UHGV virus genome: UHGV-0116392
Length of the DNA: 16,211 nt
Direction: 5' to 3' (one strand)
Origin: a virus
Each line of letters opens with the position of its first letter. The stretch's first letter is position 1. Under the pieces are notes generated by a model, which searched no databases, had not been told where the DNA came from, and was given only the letters and a program-made list of their open reading frames with translations. Shown here piece after piece: positions 138 through 15,292 of this stretch. The position numbers and the translations under genes are program-made.

Positions 138-490
138 TACGCCTCCGATGTAACAGTCGTTATTCCATAGAGAGTGTCGATTTCAGCGGAAAACATGACA
201 CGTCGGGTCGTGGTATCCACCGTCGTATTGAAAGAGAGGATTGATTTAACGCCCTGCGTTTCCAGAATGCGTTTTCTGATCGCTAGGTTGTAAGTTTCCG
301 GTTTTTGCCTGCCCAGCACAGACTGGAACCACGGAGTCCCTTCGGTAGTGTCGAGAAACCATTGCCCATACCACAATTCGAATCGCGTTTTCACAGCCTG
401 TGCCACGGCCTCAGGCGAGTTAATCAGCCAGGTGTCATCACCGCTGCCAAAGGTGTAATCGCCATCGGCGTCTTCACGTCTGTATCGCAT
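137..490 (-). CDS. Small baseplate protein (gp25/W-like or DUF2634-like position), 117 aa
   Basis: ORF with ATG at 490 overlapping the stop of the spike gene. Size and placement between spike and J-like gene fit a baseplate wedge protein. No motif confirmed. Confidence 0.5.
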   Translation of the reverse strand: MRYRREDADGDYTFGSGDDTWLINSPEAVAQAVKTRFELWYGQWFLDTTEGTPWFQSVLGRQKPETYNLAIRKRILETQGVKSILSFNTTVDTTTRRVMFSAEIDTLYGITTVTSEA

Positions 491-1242
491 CAGTTTACCC
501 CGTCGGTACTGCTTCCACCGCGCTGAACACCGCCATGAGTGTGCGTATCATCGATTGGCTTGCCGTTAGCCTTAACGCTCCCCAAGAACTCAACAGCACC
601 AGTGATTTTTGAAGCCACGCCAGAAACAACAGACCCCACCATGCCTCCCATCCAGGTTAACAGGCCATGAATGGTTACTTTCTCAGAAAAATCAGCCAGA
701 GGGGCAACCACATCAAGGCCCCCCGGAGCGACAATTTTAATTTTCCTGGTATCAGGATTAAGCTCAAAATAGGTGCTGCCGTCATCACTACGCAACTGTG
801 TGGCACTGGTATTAATACCGCTAATCTTCCTTGCCTGCGACTGGGGACCGACAATACAAAACGCATCCGATAAATCATGCATTCTGTCATCGACCGGCTC
901 CTGTATCCCGCCACTCTGCCACCAGAAATCAATACAACGATCGGCAAAAATCACCAAACATTCATCACCGGCTTTAACTGGAAACGTTAGCGTACAGCCT
1001 CCGCCACGCGGGAATACCACTGGCACATCCACCAGCAATGGGTAATTTTTGGTAATGCGGTTGCCGTCGTTATCAATTTCAACGTAACGGATAGCAGGCT
1101 GTACAACCGCCGTCACCGCATCAGGAGCGAATGACTGAACAATGCCAGGCAAGGCGACACGGATCTGGTTCTTTGTTGTTTCCCGTTCAGATTTAAATGT
1201 TTCGGCAAGGTCGCCGCTGCGGGTCTGGTCAGATACTGCCAT
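490..1242 (-). CDS. Baseplate central spike protein (gpV/Mu gp45-like), 250 aa
   Basis: ATG at 1242 with GGAG upstream. The C-terminal HTHGG motif is consistent with a metal-binding spike tip. Assignment is by family resemblance and position in the baseplate cluster. Confidence 0.6.
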   Translation of the reverse strand: MAVSDQTRSGDLAETFKSERETTKNQIRVALPGIVQSFAPDAVTAVVQPAIRYVEIDNDGNRITKNYPLLVDVPVVFPRGGGCTLTFPVKAGDECLVIFADRCIDFWWQSGGIQEPVDDRMHDLSDAFCIVGPQSQARKISGINTSATQLRSDDGSTYFELNPDTRKIKIVAPGGLDVVAPLADFSEKVTIHGLLTWMGGMVGSVVSGVASKITGAVEFLGSVKANGKPIDDTHTHGGVQRGGSSTDGVN

Positions 1243-1261
1243 TTAGTAGGCTCCAGAAAGC

Positions 1262-1293
1262 AAAAAACCCGCCAAGTGGCGGGTTTGAATTTT
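1262..1293 (-). terminator. Rho-independent terminator downstream of the inserted two-gene cassette
   Basis: Plus strand reads aaaaaacccgcc-aagt-ggcgggttt. On the minus strand a perfect 6-bp GC stem (ggcggg/cccgcc, extendable with A:T pairs) is followed by TTTTTT. A-run and T-run on both sides make it potentially bidirectional. Confidence 0.7.
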
Positions 1294-1306
1294 GAGAAAT
1301 TTCAGC

Positions 1307-1735
1307 TTATGCAGTTAACGAGTCATCACCAATCTTCAGTAATTGATTAACGATTGCATCGACCTCTTCCGCATCCAGAATTACACTTCTCGCGGTAATC
1401 CGGTTGATTTTCCGCTCAAGCTTGTAATCAGAATTAACACGTTGGGCATGCGTCATTTTCAGTTTAACGCCGATTTTCTTTACTGCGTTAACATCAACAT
1501 CGTTAAGTGCAGCTGCCTCACCACTACAAAAGGCCGTATAGACTCGCATGTGAACTCCACCTTTTAGTTTTTCACCATCTTGTGTAGCGGTCGGTACCAG
1601 ATTGTTGGTGATCCGTAAGGCGGAATGGTACATACCATAGTATGCTCGGCTAATAGCATTTCTCGTCCACATCTCACCGTTTAGAGCCAGGGAATGCTTA
1701 GCCAATTCAAGAAAACAGGTATGCTCAACCGACAT
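1307..1735 (-). CDS. Hypothetical protein, 142 aa (cassette gene B; weak HEPN-like R-x6-H signature)
   Basis: ATG at 1735 overlaps the TAA of gene A (TAATG coupling). Sequence ...SRAYYGMYH... gives an R-x6-H spacing. About 43-45% GC by eye, lower than flanking tail genes. No family confidently recognised. Confidence 0.6.
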   Translation of the reverse strand: MSVEHTCFLELAKHSLALNGEMWTRNAISRAYYGMYHSALRITNNLVPTATQDGEKLKGGVHMRVYTAFCSGEAAALNDVDVNAVKKIGVKLKMTHAQRVNSDYKLERKINRITARSVILDAEEVDAIVNQLLKIGDDSLTA

Positions 1736-2466
1736 TAGAGTTCCCCGGCTTCAAAGCATCCGACGCATTCTGAATCCGCAAGCCCCGCAATAATAATCTC
1801 ATCAGCCAAGGCATTATTCATCTGCGAAAGAAGCACTGGATCGTCTGTTTTGACTTCAACGAACAGCGTATCAAGTTCTGACATTACATAAAAAACATGA
1901 GCGCCAGCAAGACGAGCGCGGTACTTTTCTGCAACGTTCATCATGAGCCGCCCAATAGTTTTTAGCTCCTGAGCATGATCTTTTTGGGTATGCAGATAAT
2001 TGAGCGTGTCATACCATTTGCCCATATCTTCAGGGCGCGGTACTTCCATTGCAGTTAGCATCGGCATCACCTTTTCAAGCAAATCGATATCAACCCAGTA
2101 TGCAGAAATTGTAGCAACCTCAGCCAATATCGTTGGATTAAGTGAATCAGATGCTTTCTGAATCATCACATACTGGCGAGCATGCAAACCTAAGTTACGC
2201 AGCGCAATCGTATAGTTACAAAAAGAAACTGGATCGTTAGGCGCTATTCTCAACCCCCGCTCACAGAGTGAACATCCTTCATCTATTTCACCAAGAACAA
2301 GCTTAGCTAAGCCTTCAATTGATAGCCCCTGATAACGTTCAGGTAGTTTCTTCGCTTCACGAATGATTCGATGGATTTCAAACTCACTCAGAAGGTTTTC
2401 ACCCTTAGTTAATGAAGGAGTCAGAAGATCTAACAGTTCTCCTGATTTTGGCTGCGCTAAACTCAT
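1735..2466 (-). CDS. Hypothetical protein, 243 aa (cassette gene A; two CxxC pairs)
   Basis: ATG at 2466 after a 150-bp intergenic gap. Contains CSLC near the N-terminus and CVGC at the extreme C-terminus. Lower GC than neighbours. No family recognised. Confidence 0.6.
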   Translation of the reverse strand: MSLAQPKSGELLDLLTPSLTKGENLLSEFEIHRIIREAKKLPERYQGLSIEGLAKLVLGEIDEGCSLCERGLRIAPNDPVSFCNYTIALRNLGLHARQYVMIQKASDSLNPTILAEVATISAYWVDIDLLEKVMPMLTAMEVPRPEDMGKWYDTLNYLHTQKDHAQELKTIGRLMMNVAEKYRARLAGAHVFYVMSELDTLFVEVKTDDPVLLSQMNNALADEIIIAGLADSECVGCFEAGEL

Positions 2467-2615
2467 GTTTTAGTTATTCCTGGCTTTAATGAAGTAGCAT
2501 ATCGATGGCAATCCACCATCAAAAAGTCAGTGCAGTGTAATCGCTCGTCTCAAAAAACAACAGTTTTTAGAGCACATTTTGTTGTTTTTCAGGCGTTACG
2601 AATTTCAGGTTACCT

Positions 2616-2948
2616 TCACCCAGCCACTTTTTTACAAGGGAAAGATCCTATGATTTTCGGCGCATCCATGCTGTTCTGCAGAAGCTGGACATTCAGGAAA
2701 GCTTTTCCGTTACGTTTCACAAACTCAAAGCCGTAATTGTTACCATCACGGGAAGGCATCAGGCCCATGTCCATTTTTATGTTTGAATAGTCACCATCTT
2801 TTCCCAGAAATTTTATCTTCTGTGATGTGACAGTTTCACCGTTAATAACAGTCATTCCGTCACCGGTCATCGTGTAGTTGCCGCACTGAATTGCAGCCAT
2901 CGCCGGAGCAGTAACCATCATAACTAACGCCAAACATAACCGTTTCAT
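2616..2948 (-). CDS. Small secreted/periplasmic protein, ~110 aa, with cleavable signal peptide
   Basis: ATG at 2948-2946 overlaps the TAA of the hub gene (TAATG), with AGAGGG Shine-Dalgarno upstream. N-terminus MKRLCLALVMMVTAPAMA-AIQ has a positive n-region, hydrophobic core and AxA site. The mature protein has two Cys. The six-frame track's start at 3026 is an upstream in-frame extension inside the hub gene. Confidence 0.6.
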   Translation of the reverse strand: MKRLCLALVMMVTAPAMAAIQCGNYTMTGDGMTVINGETVTSQKIKFLGKDGDYSNIKMDMGLMPSRDGNNYGFEFVKRNGKAFLNVQLLQNSMDAPKIIGSFPCKKVAG

Positions 2949-4012
2949 TAAAGCCCTCTTTCCCTCGCTGATGAGGAAACAAGATCCGCCGCGCCACGCG
3001 CTTCGCACATCATATCCATGTACCACGCCTGGCCCCTTGTATCGCCAGTGTACATAATCCCGCGCACAATATAAACGCCATCCGTTGCGATGCTGGCAGG
3101 TTGTGCTGTGGTGCCGCTGAGTGTGATATTTCCGTCCGTGTTCTGGTCGGTGCTCTGCCCACCAGCCATCGCAATATCATTGTTCGACAGCGCGGTGCGG
3201 TACACGGAAGCCTGATCCAGCTGAATAAGCCCGTTAACCCGGATGTTCGGATTAATAAGCGCGCGGACGTTTACGCCGTTACCGATAGTCTGCTGCGGCA
3301 TGCCAATAAGCCCGGTAGCGCTGTTGAGCACAATCGCTTCATGAACATATTCGTTATTCGCCACCATCTGGCGCTGACCGTCCACGAATTGCCATGTTGC
3401 GCCACATTGCCCGGCTACGTTATCCATTAGATGCCGCGTCATGCCAAAGAGTACCCGCCCCCGGGGGAATACAGTAGCAGGCATTTCAGGCGTCAGGCCT
3501 TCGGTCGCGCCTTTGGCCTCAAAGTCTTTCATCAGCGCACGGTTTACATCAGCGACCGTGTAACCGGCAGCCAGCGTCTGTGAGGTTATACTGGTGGCAA
3601 AAGCCAGATCAGTATCGGCTGCCTGAATCAGGACGTAGGAATCAACCGGGCTGTCTTTTCCTGTGACCGAGTAGCGAATTTCACCGCTGAAAATCAGTCC
3701 GTAGTTGCGGCCATCACTCTGGCCCACGTCCGCCGCATCAACCTCCCGCACGGTCCCGACATCGCTTGCCGACACCTCCGGCGCGATACCGTCGTAACCC
3801 GCAATCAGACGCACTTTCGAAAACTCCTGCCCGGTAATTCGGTTCACAGTATCTGCCGAGAGGTTATAAATTTTGATAGTCCCTACCCGGGACGCGCTGC
3901 TGATGTTGAACCAGTCGATCGTAAAGGTGACTTTGAAATCACTTAGCTCAATTCCCTGACCGTTCCCGTCCACAAGCTGCAGCTCGAAATGTCTCATCCA
4001 GTTCTGTGTCAT
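2948..4012 (-). CDS. Baseplate hub protein (gp27/gpD/XkdQ-like position), 354 aa
   Basis: ATG at 4012 with GGAG at about -10. Size and placement after the tape measure and two small genes fit a hub. Family not confirmed by motif. Confidence 0.5.
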   Translation of the reverse strand: MTQNWMRHFELQLVDGNGQGIELSDFKVTFTIDWFNISSASRVGTIKIYNLSADTVNRITGQEFSKVRLIAGYDGIAPEVSASDVGTVREVDAADVGQSDGRNYGLIFSGEIRYSVTGKDSPVDSYVLIQAADTDLAFATSITSQTLAAGYTVADVNRALMKDFEAKGATEGLTPEMPATVFPRGRVLFGMTRHLMDNVAGQCGATWQFVDGQRQMVANNEYVHEAIVLNSATGLIGMPQQTIGNGVNVRALINPNIRVNGLIQLDQASVYRTALSNNDIAMAGGQSTDQNTDGNITLSGTTAQPASIATDGVYIVRGIMYTGDTRGQAWYMDMMCEARGAADLVSSSARERGL

Positions 4013-9125: not shown

Positions 9126-10406
9126 TTAATCTCCGAAAAAGATGACTGGTGCTTCCACCAGCGATTTAATACCGTACTCGCGCACAACCTTCCGGCGCAG
9201 GCGCACCGTCATATCGTAGCGGCGGACCCATTGCTGATTAATAAATTCAGGGAAGGGGGTCAGACCTGTGTAATCGCCAAGAGACAGCCCCAGCGCATTC
9301 AGTGCTGCATTGTTCTGCGGTACAGATATACCGTCACGAAACCGGGACGCATACACCATCCCCGCCGGACCATAAAACGAAGCCATACACTCAATCGTTT
9401 CATGCCGCCAGAGCTTAGAGCCATCATCGGTCTGTCTGGTGAATGCCGGACTGTCATCACCTGACCATCCGATACCCAGTTTGATATGCGCATCAACGGC
9501 AGCCTGTACCCATTCGGATGGAATCAGGACGCCTTCCGCTGATGCGCTGTAGTTCAGATCAAGTTCCTGTGCCACCACCACCGGATTATCGATTTTCTCG
9601 CATTCCCTGCGATACCACTCTTCATCCTTGCGAGGATCATCCCGCCAGTGGAATGTGAATACCGGTATCTTCCCGCCATGACGCTTCTGAGCGAACGGGT
9701 TAGCCATGCCGTTAACTGAACTCAGGTCGATACGGCAACGCGTCGTTTGTGACAACGCCGCATCAATCAGCAGAGGACGCTGAAGGAATGCAGCCTCATC
9801 AACCAGATAAAGCGTGGTACGGTCACCACGACCAATATTATCGCCAGCCTCGCCTTTGATAACGGCACCAGTTTCAGGAAACTCAACACGCATATATGGC
9901 GCGTGCTTCTTCTCACTCCACGAACCGCGAAACTCTACAGGTAGCGTTTCCACGAACTTGCGCGCCTTCCAGAACAATGCTTTCGGGTCACCAGTGCTGT
10001 CGACGTATTCCTCTTTACGGGAGCCAAAACCGATAACCATTTCTTTGTTGAAGAGACAAAGCGAGCATGCCAGTCCGATCGCGGTCCAACTGAGCCCCAT
10101 TTCACGGGATTTTTCGGTAATACCATTCTCCCGATTGCTCCAGCGTTCCATAATCCAGTGGATCCACTCCTCCTGCTTAGGGAAGAGTAAAAACGGAATG
10201 GTCACCGGCAGGCCATAATCAATATTACGCGGGTCCGTTGTCATGCCCCAGTCGATGATGAACTGAGCCGGATTGGTTCGGTAAAACTGTTTTAGTGCAG
10301 GCAATATTTCAGGATTCTGGCGAATGCGCTGTAGGCGTTCCATCCGCCATTCAAAAACCATCTGGTAATCAGGATGTTTAAAATCGAAGGGGAATGGTAA
10401 CGGCAT
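9126..10406 (-). CDS. Terminase large subunit, 426 aa
   Basis: Deviant P-loop KSREMGLS (lambda gpA-like KSxxxGxS pattern) around residues 95-105 and Walker [10 protein letters not shown] around residue 200, followed by a C-terminal domain of nuclease-domain size. Lies 2 bp downstream of terS. Confidence 0.8.
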
Positions 10407-10408
10407 AC

Positions 10409-10960
10409 TTAGCCCATCATTTTTCTATACGCTTCTGCAACCTGCTCCGGCGTTAAGTTGGTAATTTCTGTTCTGACTGGTCCTCCGTCAGCACCAGTCA
10501 CTTCATTTTTGACATTGTCTTTAAACGCCTGAACAGAAACATGACGCCCGAGCAACTCAAGGTTTTTAACCTTATCAGGCCATTTGATTTTCTTCAGAAG
10601 TGCGGCGCTATCTGCGGATGCCATCTCCACGACATCCATTCCTGATAACGTTGTGCGCCATACCTTAGGCCAGTCTTTAATGGGTTTTAGCTCACCGTTT
10701 TGCAGGAGAATGTCAAGCACATCCATCTGGTCGATTTCAATAAGGCGATTAAGTACATATTCTGCATTAATACCAACAAGATCATTGCGTTGCGCTTTCA
10801 GTTCGGCGATTCTTAACTTGATGTCAGGTTTTGACAGGTTTTCGGATGCGGTACGGTTGGCTGTTTTTGCGCTGTACCCCGCCCGAATAGCCGCTTGCGT
10901 GGCGTTTAAATCGATGAGGTACTCGCGACAGAACATCTCTTGCTTGTCTGTGAGTGCCAT
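10409..10960 (-). CDS. Terminase small subunit (Terminase_2/P27-type), 183 aa
   Basis: N-terminus [30 protein letters not shown] is the characteristic HTH start of this family. Immediately upstream of terL. Confidence 0.85.
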
Positions 10961-10980
10961 TTTTTCTCAAAGGTGAATTT

Positions 10981-11412
10981 ATGAGCTCATTAACGTTTAT
11001 CGGATTGTCACAGTTACTTTCTAGGAAAGGTGAGTTATTACAGCAAAATACGAATGATTTATTAGAACGTGTTAACACCGCATGGAATAACAAACGAGAC
11101 CTTAATAAGCAAATTTCCATAGAGCTAAATGATGGAGAGCTTGAGGTTTCAATTCCACAGCTACGCTTTAAGTGTTTTACAGAAAGTAAGCTTTCACTTC
11201 ACGAAGGCTCATTAATTGGGGTTATTACTTTTTACACATCGCGAGATGGAAAAAAACAGGAGTTTCATAAAATTTTTCTTGATTGGAACAATTGCATGCA
11301 TTTTGGGGCGCTTGACTCAACAGCTCCAATAGACATCGACTATACCGAAGATGTTGAGTATCTCTTTATGAACGCTCTAATCGATTCTGCTTATCGAAAT
11401 AATTTAATCTAA
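10981..11412 (+). CDS. Hypothetical protein, ~143 aa; AT-rich orphan gene divergent from terS
   Basis: The only convincing plus-strand gene. ATG at 10981 is preceded by AAGGTGA; the track's start at 10954 is an upstream GTG. GC is visibly much lower than the rest of the window. No family recognised. Confidence 0.6.
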   Translation: MSSLTFIGLSQLLSRKGELLQQNTNDLLERVNTAWNNKRDLNKQISIELNDGELEVSIPQLRFKCFTESKLSLHEGSLIGVITFYTSRDGKKQEFHKIFLDWNNCMHFGALDSTAPIDIDYTEDVEYLFMNALIDSAYRNNLI

Positions 11413-11759
11413 TTGATGTTGGTGGTGAACTTTTGCCACCCAGTTAATCACTCTTAGCAGGATATAAGCCATTGTCGAGACCACTCATTGAATGGTCTCT
11501 GCAATAACCGATGTCTTTCCATCAGTCCGCCACCACAAAGAATCTTTTTTGCCATAAGGCAGGAGGTTCATCTTTCAGTGGCTGCCAGTGTTACTTCCCC
11601 ACTTTCTGGCTTGGGTTGTTTCGCTGTACTGCCGTAACTGGTGGTGCACAGATTTAGTTAAATCTGTTCTCGCCTGAACTATCTTTTACATACCCGGATT
11701 GTGGGGATGTAAATCACGGTTTCATTATCAAGCCCACCCGTAGATGGGCTTTGGAATGG

Positions 11760-12278
11760 TCACTTTGGCAGTCCGGGGATCGATATTTGCGCCTGCTGCT
11801 CAAGCCTTTCGATTCTTGCTATGAGTTGAGGTTTTTTGATCCTGCCCCAGCGGTTCAGCAAGCGTCCTGACATACTGGCAACATCCTTTTCCTTCATGAA
11901 CTCCAGCATTAACTCGTTGTGCTCTCTTTGGTATGAGTGAGCCATCTCCATCAGTCTGTCACGCATCCAATTAAATGCTTTGATAAACGCCTCTTTGATG
12001 GCGGCAGCTTTTTTGCCGGTAAACGACATGATGATGTACATCGCACCGTCTTTGGAAATTTCATATTCAACATACTGATTACCCTTGTGTTCATAGGTAA
12101 CCCGCGAAAAGTTGCTGGTTAGAAATTCATCCGAACAGTCTAGCTTTTCGATTTTCTGAATGATGTGGTGATGCTGCTTGTCGAAGTAAGCTGCTACCTT
12201 GCGGGAGGTTGTGATCACGCGATCACCAGAAACAACCACCATGTCCCGGAAATCGAGATTAGCCAATTGATGATTCAT
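11760..12278 (-). CDS. rha: Rha-family phage regulatory protein, ~172 aa
   Basis: N-terminal region MNHQLANLDFRDMVVVSGDRVITTSRKVAAYFDKQHHHIIQKI matches the Rha family pattern. Its position between lysis cassette and terS is as in P22. The track starts at a GTG at 12314; ATG at 12278 is preferred. Confidence 0.75.
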   Translation of the reverse strand: MNHQLANLDFRDMVVVSGDRVITTSRKVAAYFDKQHHHIIQKIEKLDCSDEFLTSNFSRVTYEHKGNQYVEYEISKDGAMYIIMSFTGKKAAAIKEAFIKAFNWMRDRLMEMAHSYQREHNELMLEFMKEKDVASMSGRLLNRWGRIKKPQLIARIERLEQQAQISIPGLPK

Positions 12279-14668: not shown

Positions 14669-15292
14669 CTAACGTGTGACCGCATTCAAAATGTTGTCTG
14701 CGATTGACTCTTCTTTGTGGCATTGCACCACCAGAGCGTCATACAGCGGCTTAACAGTGCGTGACCAGGTGGGTTGAGTAAGGTTTGGGATTAGCATCGT
14801 TACAGCGCGATATGCGGCGCTTGCTGGCATTCTTGAATAGCCGACACCTTTGCATCTTCCGCACTCTTTCTCAACAACTCTCCCCCACTGCTCCGTTTTG
14901 GCTATATCAACCGCACGGCCTGTACCGTGGCAATCTCTGCATCTTGCGCCCGGCGTCGCGGCACTACGGCAATAATCCGCATAAGCGAATGTTGCGAGCA
15001 CTTGCAGTACCTTTGCCTTAGTATTTCCTTCAAGCTTTGCCACACCACGGTATTTCCCCGATACCTTGTGTGCAAATTGCATCAGATAGTTGATAGCCTT
15101 TTGTTTGTCGTTCTGGCTGAGTTCGTGCTTACCACAGAATGCAGCCATTCCGAATCCGGCTTGTGATTGCGCCATCCCCATAGCAGCCATCACATCAGTA
15201 CCGGAAAGAGAGTCAGAAGCCGTGGCCCGTGGTGAGTCACTCATCATCGGGCTTTTTGGCGAATGAAATTTAGCTACGCTTTCGAGTCTCAT
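14669..15292 (-). CDS. Q: Late antiterminator Q, 207 aa
   Basis: [44 protein letters not shown] matches lambda Q. ATGA overlap with ninI. Confidence 0.95.

Follow-up and report, generated by a model that had tools for sequence, protein, structure and literature searches.

A mobile two-gene cassette encoding a predicted HEPN-fold protein and a helical-repeat partner in a variable slot of SEN34-like prophage tail clusters

MNT-HEPN modules (type VII; PADLOC PDC-M05) consist of a gene for a small standalone HEPN protein, preceded by an overlapping gene for its partner, a minimal nucleotidyltransferase by which the HEPN toxin is AMPylated. Classical modules of this type are mostly archaeal or chromosomal. 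The lactococcal HEPN protein AbiV is a proven anti-phage abortive-infection effector; it is a single-gene system and is not known to have a TPR partner. Tha, from prophages of S. aureus, is a tail-activated HEPN effector with a canonical RX4H that is expressed in lysogeny and acts by abortive infection; it is a single protein of 301 aa with an antisense-encoded inhibitor, and its prophage must avoid autoimmunity. Anantharaman et al. (2013) have described HEPN families coupled to TPR or Sel1 repeat genes (LA2681; AbiU2 with Sel1), for which a role in defence or conflict was predicted. An AF0298-like HEPN variant with a proposed alternative active site has also been described, and some HEPN domains are reported to be inactive binding modules (PMC3710099). 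In this variant, HEPN-T (UPF0332/PF05168 clade; PDB 2hsb), the arginine is kept, an aspartate stands in place of the histidine, and an alternative histidine lies in the insert that separates helix 2 from helix 3. The gp15 moron of HK97, present as extra DNA in the tail operon of some relatives, has a deviant GC content and a terminator downstream, and encodes a small membrane protein for superinfection exclusion.

The locus reported here lies in a stretch of 16,211 nucleotides (hereafter the window) of the virus genome UHGV-0116392 and consists of two genes, A and B. Like the MNT-HEPN modules, it has a small standalone HEPN-type gene (B) downstream of an overlapping partner (A). Unlike them, it has as partner a TPR-like protein of 243 aa whose C-terminal domain is novel, B does not reach the threshold of Pfam HEPN, and the pair is carried by temperate phages of Gammaproteobacteria. 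When B was scanned against PADLOC-DB v2.0.0 with an E-value limit of 1, the sole match was HEPN_IX (E=0.0094, not significant) and AbiV was not matched. LA2681 and AbiU2 belong to different HEPN clades from B and keep the canonical Rx4-6H, and their likeness to A, the helical-repeat partner, is by description. Tha, also compared by description, resembles the pair as a prophage-encoded HEPN effector, although it occupies another genome location. DefensePredictor DS-28, an HEPN nuclease with a hypothetical protein, was set apart by description, as its gene order and accessions differ. The HK97 moron shares its general setting with A-B and is not an HEPN pair; the slot that holds A-B also differs from classical tail morons in that its terminator is owned by the backbone and that many alternative cargos are exchanged at one fixed site. 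Literature and supplements searched by accession number yielded no paper on the A/B family.

Both genes are real open reading frames, and the features of the region are collected in Table 1. The preliminary description had placed two translationally coupled genes of 243 and 142 aa between the hub-associated genes and the spike gene, and this arrangement was borne out: A is upstream of B, the two overlap by one base (TAATG), the hub gene and orf115 lie on one side and the spike gene on the other. The RefSeq label for the product of the latter is membrane-puncturing spike protein. By its translation, orf115 encodes a small protein that starts with a signal peptide; the gene is annotated in all relatives, and a homologue was found in SEN34. 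The GC content of positions 1262-2615 is 0.432 vs 0.522 for the tail genes, and GC3 is 0.38-0.41 in the cassette genes vs about 0.6 in the tail genes, in agreement with the lower GC noted earlier.

Table 1. Coordinates of the cassette, its slot and associated features in the window
Feature	Position	Strand	Remarks
Variable cargo slot	1287..2620	minus	delimited by homology break-points between prophages with different cargos
Gene A	1735..2466	minus	243 aa; real ORF
Gene B	1307..1735	minus	142 aa; real ORF
Cargo-specific intergenic region	2467..2615	minus	149 bp; precedes A; presumed promoter/regulatory
Intrinsic terminator	1256..1286	minus	directly upstream of the ribosome-binding site of the spike gene; backbone element
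Spike gene, P2 gpV-like	490..1242	minus	backbone; downstream of slot; TIGR01644, 4e-08
orf115, conserved backbone gene	2616..2963	minus	upstream slot boundary
Hub gene	2948..4012		beside orf115, on the upstream side of the cassette
Q-type antiterminator	14669..15292	minus	same prophage; Pfam Antiterm PF03589, 1.3e-57

Alignments of prophages with different cargos show sharp break-points: homology is lost within the final codons of orf115 (~2620) and returns with the terminator hairpin (~1287). The tail module is present in 353 complete E. coli genomes, of which 32-33 carry the cassette in exactly this slot, and about 90% of closely related tail modules are without A and B. At least eight alternative cargos were found, including DUF4282, DUF2335, a YafO-family toxin pair and a 170-aa protein; the span and coverage of the slot were tabulated for 60 evenly sampled E. 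coli prophages. Divergent A/B pairs (243+140, 256+131 and 257+131 aa) fill the slot in other E. coli and in Rahnella, Yersinia and Edwardsiella, so that several highly divergent alleles occupy one locus; such alleles are present in a derivative of EPEC E2348/69 and in UPEC F11. PADLOC recognised no defence system among the other cargos of the slot and gave no matches to the F11-type pair. Guilt by association therefore rests mainly on the YafO toxin pair and on a case in a P2-like hotspot described below.

These comparisons support the view that the region is a horizontally mobile accessory cassette, or moron, in a fixed slot of the SEN34/Brunovirus-like prophage tail cluster. Of the features that mark a moron (PMC3594210), variable presence among relatives and a GC content unlike that of the flanks were both found. 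The self-contained accessory cassette suspected earlier is thus upheld by its variable presence at this position in related prophages, its mobility as a unit and the lack of any structural-family match. That A and B are encoded among the baseplate genes, on the strand of the late genes, could suggest that they are structural or assembly parts (baseplate chaperones or hub accessories, for example) rather than cargo. This is highly improbable and is effectively refuted by the comparative data: the pair is missing from most related tail modules, is replaced in the slot by unrelated small membrane proteins or toxin pairs, has an atypical GC content, and occurs in phage Chronis, where it lies in the early region, as well as in a replication/portal hotspot of P2-like phages. 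Neither universal conservation at this position nor homology to baseplate components, the two outcomes that the preliminary description had named as contradicting an accessory cassette, was observed.

The pair is also found far beyond this slot. In all loci examined, A and B were neighbours that overlapped or almost did so; elsewhere than here their junctions extend from overlaps (1-17 nt) to a gap of 3 nt, except for one variant call in one locus (L020). This is the generic layout of toxin-antitoxin modules, in which two small, co-transcribed and overlapping genes are always inherited together. In Citrobacter and Pseudocitrobacter the pair occupies the same slot, and at two further loci (L008 and L010) it lies in another myovirus-type tail cluster. 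Yokenella (L013) carries the pair with none of the tail proteins of this window nearby. Other settings include a lambda-like siphovirus, with the pair between the tape measure and the tail-tip genes, a Mu-like tail in Aeromonas, the early region of Klebsiella phage Chronis, and a P2-like Vibrio phage, with the pair between portal/ogr and gpA. The gpA-portal position of P2-like phages has been defined as a defence hotspot (PMC9122126). The pair was found on viral contigs as well, where two distant relatives of B gave no matches. The exact sequence of B is present on at least 1000 contigs, and a scan of genome contigs gave three species representatives only. Overall, A-B moves as one unit between unrelated phage backbones. 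A bias toward tape-measure or baseplate neighbours was seen to recur in unrelated tails.

The hairpin after B (1286..1265) has a stem of 9 bp, six of them GC pairs, followed by a T-run (AAACCCGCC-ACTT-GGCGGGTTT, then TTTGCTTTCT) and folds at -17.1 kcal/mol (z=-3.7 vs shuffles). The strong terminator reported after the cassette is thus present. It is, however, not the cassette's own, as had been supposed: the same hairpin stands ahead of the spike gene in all related prophages irrespective of their cargo, and was seen downstream of six other cargos, including that of Salmonella phage SEN34. As an element of the phage backbone, the terminator closes the variable slot on its downstream side; a terminator of its own, which is another mark of a moron (PMC3594210), is therefore not carried by this cassette. 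The prophage also encodes a Q-type antiterminator, and this protein would likely explain how the late operon reads through the terminator at 1265-1286 in lytic growth. The read-through is suggested by the behaviour of lambdoid Q proteins.

Upstream of A, the intergenic region of about 150 bp and the weak Shine-Dalgarno of the preliminary description were confirmed, the latter as AGGA at 2481..2478, 11 nt before the ATG. Its promoter-like hexamers fared less well, being below consensus. A scan of 1100-2800 for the sigma-70 consensus returned no promoter (shuffles give 3.3), and the best candidate picked by hand, TTGATG (2522..2517) and TATGCT (2501..2496) with a 15-nt spacer, is poor. The region is unrelated in sequence to the equivalent position in prophages with other cargos, is kept together with the cassette in Citrobacter and Pseudocitrobacter, and exceeds 100 nt in those loci in which both gene calls were available. 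With respect to the own promoter expected of a moron (PMC3594210), a cargo-specific upstream region travels with the genes and carries no consensus sigma-70 site. Independent expression of A-B in the lysogen, from this region, is left as an inference because a consensus promoter was undetectable. Alignment of the upstream regions of distant cassettes showed one TA(a/c)ACT-like patch in common, too weak to call. Rfam searches of 1100-2800 gave sub-threshold matches only, driven by the terminator hairpin. An AT-rich 10-bp inverted repeat (~2546-2582) was considered as a structured element and dropped, as it folds no better than shuffles (z=-0.48) and has a non-compensated change in Citrobacter.

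The structure model of B (pLDDT 91.7) has the four-helix up-down arrangement of the HEPN fold. Among 57 relatives of 25-47% identity, E21, R25, Y32, Y33, R99, D103 and Y104 are invariant and H62 is near-invariant (at least 90% of sequences); R30 and H37 are also conserved. The earlier hint of an HEPN protein agrees with the fold of the model and with the conserved residues. The R-x6-H spacing on which it drew does exist, as the conserved R30-x6-H37, and lies in helix 2 of the model, not at the end of helix 3 where the canonical HEPN site is placed. The latter position reads R99-V-N-S-D103-Y104, with no histidine of an Rx4-6H motif. H62 sits between helix 2 (21-43) and helix 3 (82-104), within the insert that joins them, and the invariant R99, the invariant D103 in place of histidine and H62 as an alternative histidine together reproduce the features of AF0298-like HEPN-T. 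At the level of profiles, B itself had no match in Pfam at E<=1, and the profile of its family reached the 2hsb sequence at E=0.11. The Pfam HEPN model PF05168 was matched by 18 of the 57 profile-linked relatives (best 1.4e-07), and relatives also match PADLOC PDC-M05B, the HEPN of MNT-HEPN modules. From the model and the residue pattern, B is assigned as a predicted HEPN-fold protein of the AF0298-like subtype (HEPN-T, PF05168-related), and an RNase-type effector or toxin is proposed as its role. To our knowledge, the RNase activity of AF0298-like HEPN proteins is itself a proposal only.

B could alternatively be a non-catalytic HEPN domain that binds a ligand, either RNA or protein, in which case the pair would serve counter-defence, the regulation of lysogeny or of late genes, or some other lysogenic conversion. 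The absent histidine of the canonical Rx4-6H, the existence of inactive HEPN binding modules (PMC3710099), the lack of a significant match to any PADLOC defence model and the repeated position of the pair beside tape-measure or baseplate genes in unrelated tails are all consistent with such a role. However, the polar set E21, R25, R99, D103, Y104 and H62 persists to 25% identity, such a set marks an alternative active site and not an inactive domain according to PMC3710099, and the pair occurs outside tail clusters too. A binding role is therefore considered unlikely.

The model of A consists of TPR-like helical repeats (~7-181) followed by a small conserved C-terminal beta-beta-alpha-beta domain (186-240). 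No enzyme signature or catalytic motif was found in A, Foldseek against the PDB gave nothing at E<=0.001, and searches of Pfam, NCBIfam and PADLOC gave no nucleotidyltransferase match. The sole match of A in PADLOC-DB v2.0.0 was PDC-M71B (E=0.037, not significant). Direct searches of both A and B against Pfam, NCBIfam, PADLOC and PHROGs returned no informative family. A diverges faster than B, with identities of 38-40% vs 48-58% in matched pairs and of 26% vs 49% in the Chronis pair. It is also without a DNA-binding domain; autoregulation through such a domain is typical of type II antitoxins. A is proposed to be a regulator, sensor or antitoxin partner of B.

The CxxC pairs noted at both ends of A are present in this copy as CSLC (65-68) and CVGC (234-237), and a zinc-binding (CxxC...CxxC) regulator that binds nucleic acids could be read from them. 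The pairs are not conserved: among 25 close homologues only C234 is invariant while the other three cysteines (C65, C68 and C237) vary, and C234 is itself lost in distant members. The two pairs also fall in separate elements of the model, the first in a TPR helix and the second in the last beta-strand. Zinc binding by A is very improbable.

The explanation that fits best, and which is probably correct, is a mobile cassette that pairs an HEPN effector, B, with a TPR regulator, A, as a toxin-antitoxin-like or abortive-infection module and not as a part of the tail. A toxin-like or anti-phage role is plausible on these grounds. The same layout, an overlapping gene pair in which the HEPN gene comes second, the YafO-family toxin pair in the same slot of other prophages and the match of distant relatives of B to the HEPN of MNT-HEPN modules would also suit a plain addiction module, with B as toxin and A as antitoxin, that stabilises the prophage or persists selfishly without any anti-phage function. 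Such a module appears quite unlikely. At 243 aa A is large, it has neither a DNA-binding nor a nucleotidyltransferase domain, and it changes faster than B, all of which suits a sensor more than a simple antitoxin; one relative lies in the P2 gpA-portal defence hotspot, and several highly divergent alleles occur at one locus. Many divergent alleles at one locus are usually linked to conflict with phages, and many toxin-antitoxin modules double as defence systems.

If the cassette is an effector-regulator module of this kind, the pair would be transcribed in the lysogen from its own upstream region, and transcription would stop at the backbone terminator. A, whose gene stands where classical MNT-HEPN modules have that of the MNT antitoxin, would hold B inactive, sense a trigger, or both. 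On infection by another phage, A may be titrated, displaced or degraded, and the freed B would then cleave RNA and abort the infection, in a toxin-antitoxin-like mode. During lytic growth of the prophage itself, Q-modified polymerase would pass the terminator into the spike gene. In this scheme we infer the RNase activity of B, the interaction of A with B and the anti-phage role. A more specific reading, put forward here as a tentative possibility, is that A/B represents an unrecognised and widespread family of phage-borne abortive-infection systems, in which an HEPN domain whose active site is non-canonical (R99/H62, lacking the motif histidine) is controlled, in place of a nucleotidyltransferase, by a fast-evolving TPR sensor of a protein of the incoming phage. 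The sensed protein would possibly be a tail or baseplate component, because the pair often adjoins tape-measure and baseplate genes. If this reading is true, it would give the first functional demonstration of AF0298-like HEPN domains as nucleases in immunity.

The A/B family is common, with the exact B on at least 1000 contigs and divergent alleles in well-studied strains. No test was found of the 2013 proposal that AF0298-like HEPN proteins are catalytic. If A-B is an anti-phage or toxin module, it would extend the range of HEPN toxins by a new type of partner, in which TPR is combined with a novel alpha/beta domain, and would provide a tractable E. coli system with which to probe catalysis by a histidine-less AF0298-like HEPN. 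The fixed exchange slot of SEN34-like prophage tails, which runs from orf115 to the terminator ahead of the spike gene, could then be mined for further accessory and defence genes, as has been the case for the P2 and P4 hotspots.

The preliminary description placed two coupled genes between the hub-associated genes and the spike gene, and this layout proved correct after transfer to the minus strand, which encodes every gene in this region. Gene A (TPR-like protein) and gene B (HEPN-fold protein) meet at a TAATG junction, in which one base is common to the TAA stop of A and the ATG of B. The lower GC described for the cassette was likewise confirmed (0.432 in 1262-2615 vs 0.522 in the tail genes), and its GC3 was 0.38–0.41 vs about 0.6 in the tail genes. 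Sequence comparisons indicate that the cassette is cargo. The 3.7-kb hub-to-spike segment was matched in 353 complete E. coli genomes and the cassette in 32 of these, so that the variable presence in related prophages proposed as a check was indeed observed. With 1200-2700 (cassette and immediate flanks) as the query, 252 genomes were matched, 33 of them over at least 80% of the query. Other E. coli carry in the same slot a DUF4282 protein, a DUF2335 protein, a 190-aa protein with a YafO-family toxin, a 170-aa protein, a 184-aa protein with a 56-aa protein, a 241-aa protein, or divergent pairs of the A/B kind, and the slot of Salmonella phage SEN34 holds an unrelated protein of 138 aa whose N-terminal segment is hydrophobic. 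In alignments of the slot edges, homology is lost in the last codons of orf115 (~2620) and returns exactly at the terminator hairpin (~1287), and the non-coding region upstream of A is therefore part of the cargo; in Citrobacter and Pseudocitrobacter it is conserved alongside the cassette. A signal peptide (MKRLCLALVMMVTAPAMA) is clearly recognisable in the product of orf115, the mature part of which has two further cysteines; the gene is low in GC (0.443), its protein matched no family, and its SEN34 homologue is annotated too short.

Features of the cassette, its flanks and the wider prophage
Feature	Position	Strand	Details
Spike gene	1242..490	minus	P2 gpV-like; start ~20 nt past terminator
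Intrinsic terminator	hairpin 1286..1265 within 1256-1286	minus	AAACCCGCC-ACTT-GGCGGGTTT, then T-run
Gene B	1735..1307	minus	142 aa
Gene A	2466..1735	minus	243 aa
Non-coding stretch 5' of gene A	2467-2615	minus	149 bp
orf115	2616-2963	minus	small conserved backbone gene between hub gene and cargo slot
Hub-type gene	2948-4012	minus	354 aa; overlapped by orf115
TerL/neck fusion ORF	9126..10406	minus	426 aa
Small terminase gene	10409-10960	minus	
Probable second variable slot	10960-11760		GC 0.37-0.41
Q-type antiterminator gene	14669-15292	minus	

The strong terminator reported after the cassette is present (-17.1 kcal/mol, z=-3.7), but it is an element of the phage backbone and not of the cargo, as the same terminator was found 3' of every cargo examined, including that of SEN34. 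It sits immediately before the spike ribosome-binding site, inside the late tail operon, and is conserved in the related prophages L002-L007. This conservation implies antitermination-dependent late transcription, which fits the Q-type antiterminator gene detected by Pfam in the same prophage. During lytic growth, Q-modified polymerase would pass the terminator before the spike gene; in the lysogen, the terminator would shield the spike gene from cargo transcription. The promoter-like hexamers reported upstream of A fared less well, since a consensus promoter scan of the cassette region detected none and the best candidate for A/B, TTGATG-N15-TATGCT, is weak.

The prophage in the window is SEN34/Brunovirus-like; tRNA-Arg, yfdC and intS adjoin the prophage of the E. 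coli relative examined, strain PEC122. On the minus strand, Pfam gives the gene order Q antiterminator, holin, Rz, Rha, small terminase, sheath (DUF3383), tube, chaperone, tape measure, Dit-like, plug, hub, orf115, cassette and spike. The 426-aa ORF joins the N-terminal ATPase part of TerL to a neck terminator C-terminus (C-terminal ~115 aa, PF23961) at a junction near 9477, and portal, capsid and head-completion genes are absent between the small terminase and the tail genes. The intact PEC122 prophage is collinear with the window only up to 9477, and a 3.4-kb segment across this junction was covered to at least 80% in no complete E. coli genome of the collection. The head genes of the prophage have been lost, and what is left, Q with the lysis and tail genes, is arranged as in a defective prophage or a tailocin. 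Between the small terminase and Rha lies a low-GC region with ORFs lacking a Pfam match; at the equivalent position in related prophages there is an HNH endonuclease gene or other hypothetical genes, and the region is thus probably a second variable slot.

The product of gene B is confidently modelled as a HEPN domain (pLDDT 91.7). An exhaustive profile search recovered 1137 relatives, each 115-150 aa long. Alignment of 57 of these (identity to B 25-47%, plus one close homologue with 72%) showed E21, R25, Y32, Y33, R99, D103 and Y104 to be invariant and R30, H37 and H62 nearly so; 18 of the 57 matched Pfam HEPN, 24 matched PADLOC HEPN_IX, and a few matched PDC-M05B, the HEPN half of nucleotidyltransferase-HEPN modules. 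The HEPN hint of the preliminary description was right in fold but wrong in its stated reason, as the cited R-x6-H (R30...H37), though conserved, is located in helix 2. The canonical motif site, at the end of helix 3, reads R99-x3-D103-Y104 in B. Anantharaman et al. (PMC3710099) have reported the replacement of H by D in the HEPN motif of the AF0298-like HEPN-T group and AbiV, and have proposed that an alternative conserved His in the helix 2-3 insert rebuilds the active site. B has the same motif variant, and its H62 fits the alternative His.

The predicted structure of A is also confident (pLDDT 90.2), with a helical-repeat region (residues ~7-181) and, C-terminal to it, a beta-beta-alpha-beta domain (186-240). 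Searches with Pfam, PADLOC and NCBIfam detected neither a nucleotidyltransferase nor an HTH nor any other catalytic signature. The CxxC pairs noted earlier are present but not conserved among homologues, which excludes the alternative that A is a zinc-binding regulator. Family members are standalone proteins of 243-261 aa from Enterobacterales, Aeromonas and Vibrio, with no fusion to another domain and no functional name; the family is without a Pfam, NCBIfam or PADLOC model, and its PHROGs entry is of unknown function. In matched pairs A diverges more quickly than B. The most variable stretch of A is residues 141-200, and what remains recognisable in its most distant homologues is the C-terminal domain.

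Homologues of A and B were adjacent in every locus found, overlapping or nearly so, in unrelated backbones and positions; the pair is a mobile unit. Citrobacter and Pseudocitrobacter have it in the slot that it occupies here. At other sites it was found in a different myovirus-type tail cluster (L008, L010), in a lambda-like siphovirus between the genes for tape measure and tail tip (L009), in a Mu-like tail of Aeromonas, in a Klebsiella ST405 phage 5' of the tape measure (B disrupted), in Klebsiella phage Chronis (early region, gp57 and gp58), in two viral contigs, and in a Yokenella locus (L013) with none of the window's tail proteins found nearby. In a P2-like Vibrio phage it lies between portal/ogr and replication gene A, a locus defined as a P2 anti-phage hotspot (PMC9122126). 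Variable presence and the occurrences outside tail clusters effectively exclude the reading of A and B as structural components. Divergent pairs (243+140, 256+131 and 257+131 aa) were found in the same slot in E. coli F11, an EPEC E2348/69 derivative, PEC209 and 96_1414P, and in Rahnella, Yersinia and Edwardsiella; in profile searches the small proteins matched B at 1e-27 to 1e-44 and the large ones A at 1e-26 and better. Roughly 16 of 60 evenly spaced sampled prophages carry some A/B-type pair, a figure extrapolated via span and coverage classes from few inspected loci. The 131-aa B-family gene of F11 (NZ_CP076123.1; L003 1201-1596, minus) has no RefSeq annotation; it overlaps the end of the annotated 257-aa partner gene and matches the B family with an hhalign probability of 99.3%. 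One 90%-identity protein cluster contains both the 142-aa and the 243-aa proteins, which suggests that somewhere in the collection A and B were called as one fused or read-through gene. Tape-measure or baseplate-hub genes repeatedly adjoin the pair in unrelated tails, Mu-like, lambda-like and other myoviruses (L017, L009, L008/L010, L016, L018-L022). This placement leaves room for a rival reading, in which B is a non-catalytic HEPN with some other role.

A toxin-antitoxin-like, abortive-infection module is the favoured reading by analogy with known HEPN modules and effectors. MNT-HEPN modules likewise have the HEPN gene second, overlapping its partner, although that partner is a nucleotidyltransferase and here a TPR-type protein; operons linking HEPN with TPR or Sel1 proteins have been catalogued for other HEPN clades (Anantharaman et al. 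2013); and Tha is a known prophage HEPN effector that aborts infection, the mode proposed for A/B. A pure addiction module is a rival to this reading. A moron in a tail operon, a HEPN toxin-like pair and a prophage hotspot are all known kinds; an AF0298-like HEPN with a TPR-type partner replacing the MNT is, as far as Pfam, NCBIfam, PADLOC, PHROGs and the searchable literature show, an uncharacterised pairing. Under the favoured abortive-infection reading, the pair would be transcribed during lysogeny from its own 5' region, A would contact and restrain B and probably serve as sensor, and B would act as an RNase-type effector, through which the pair may protect against phage.
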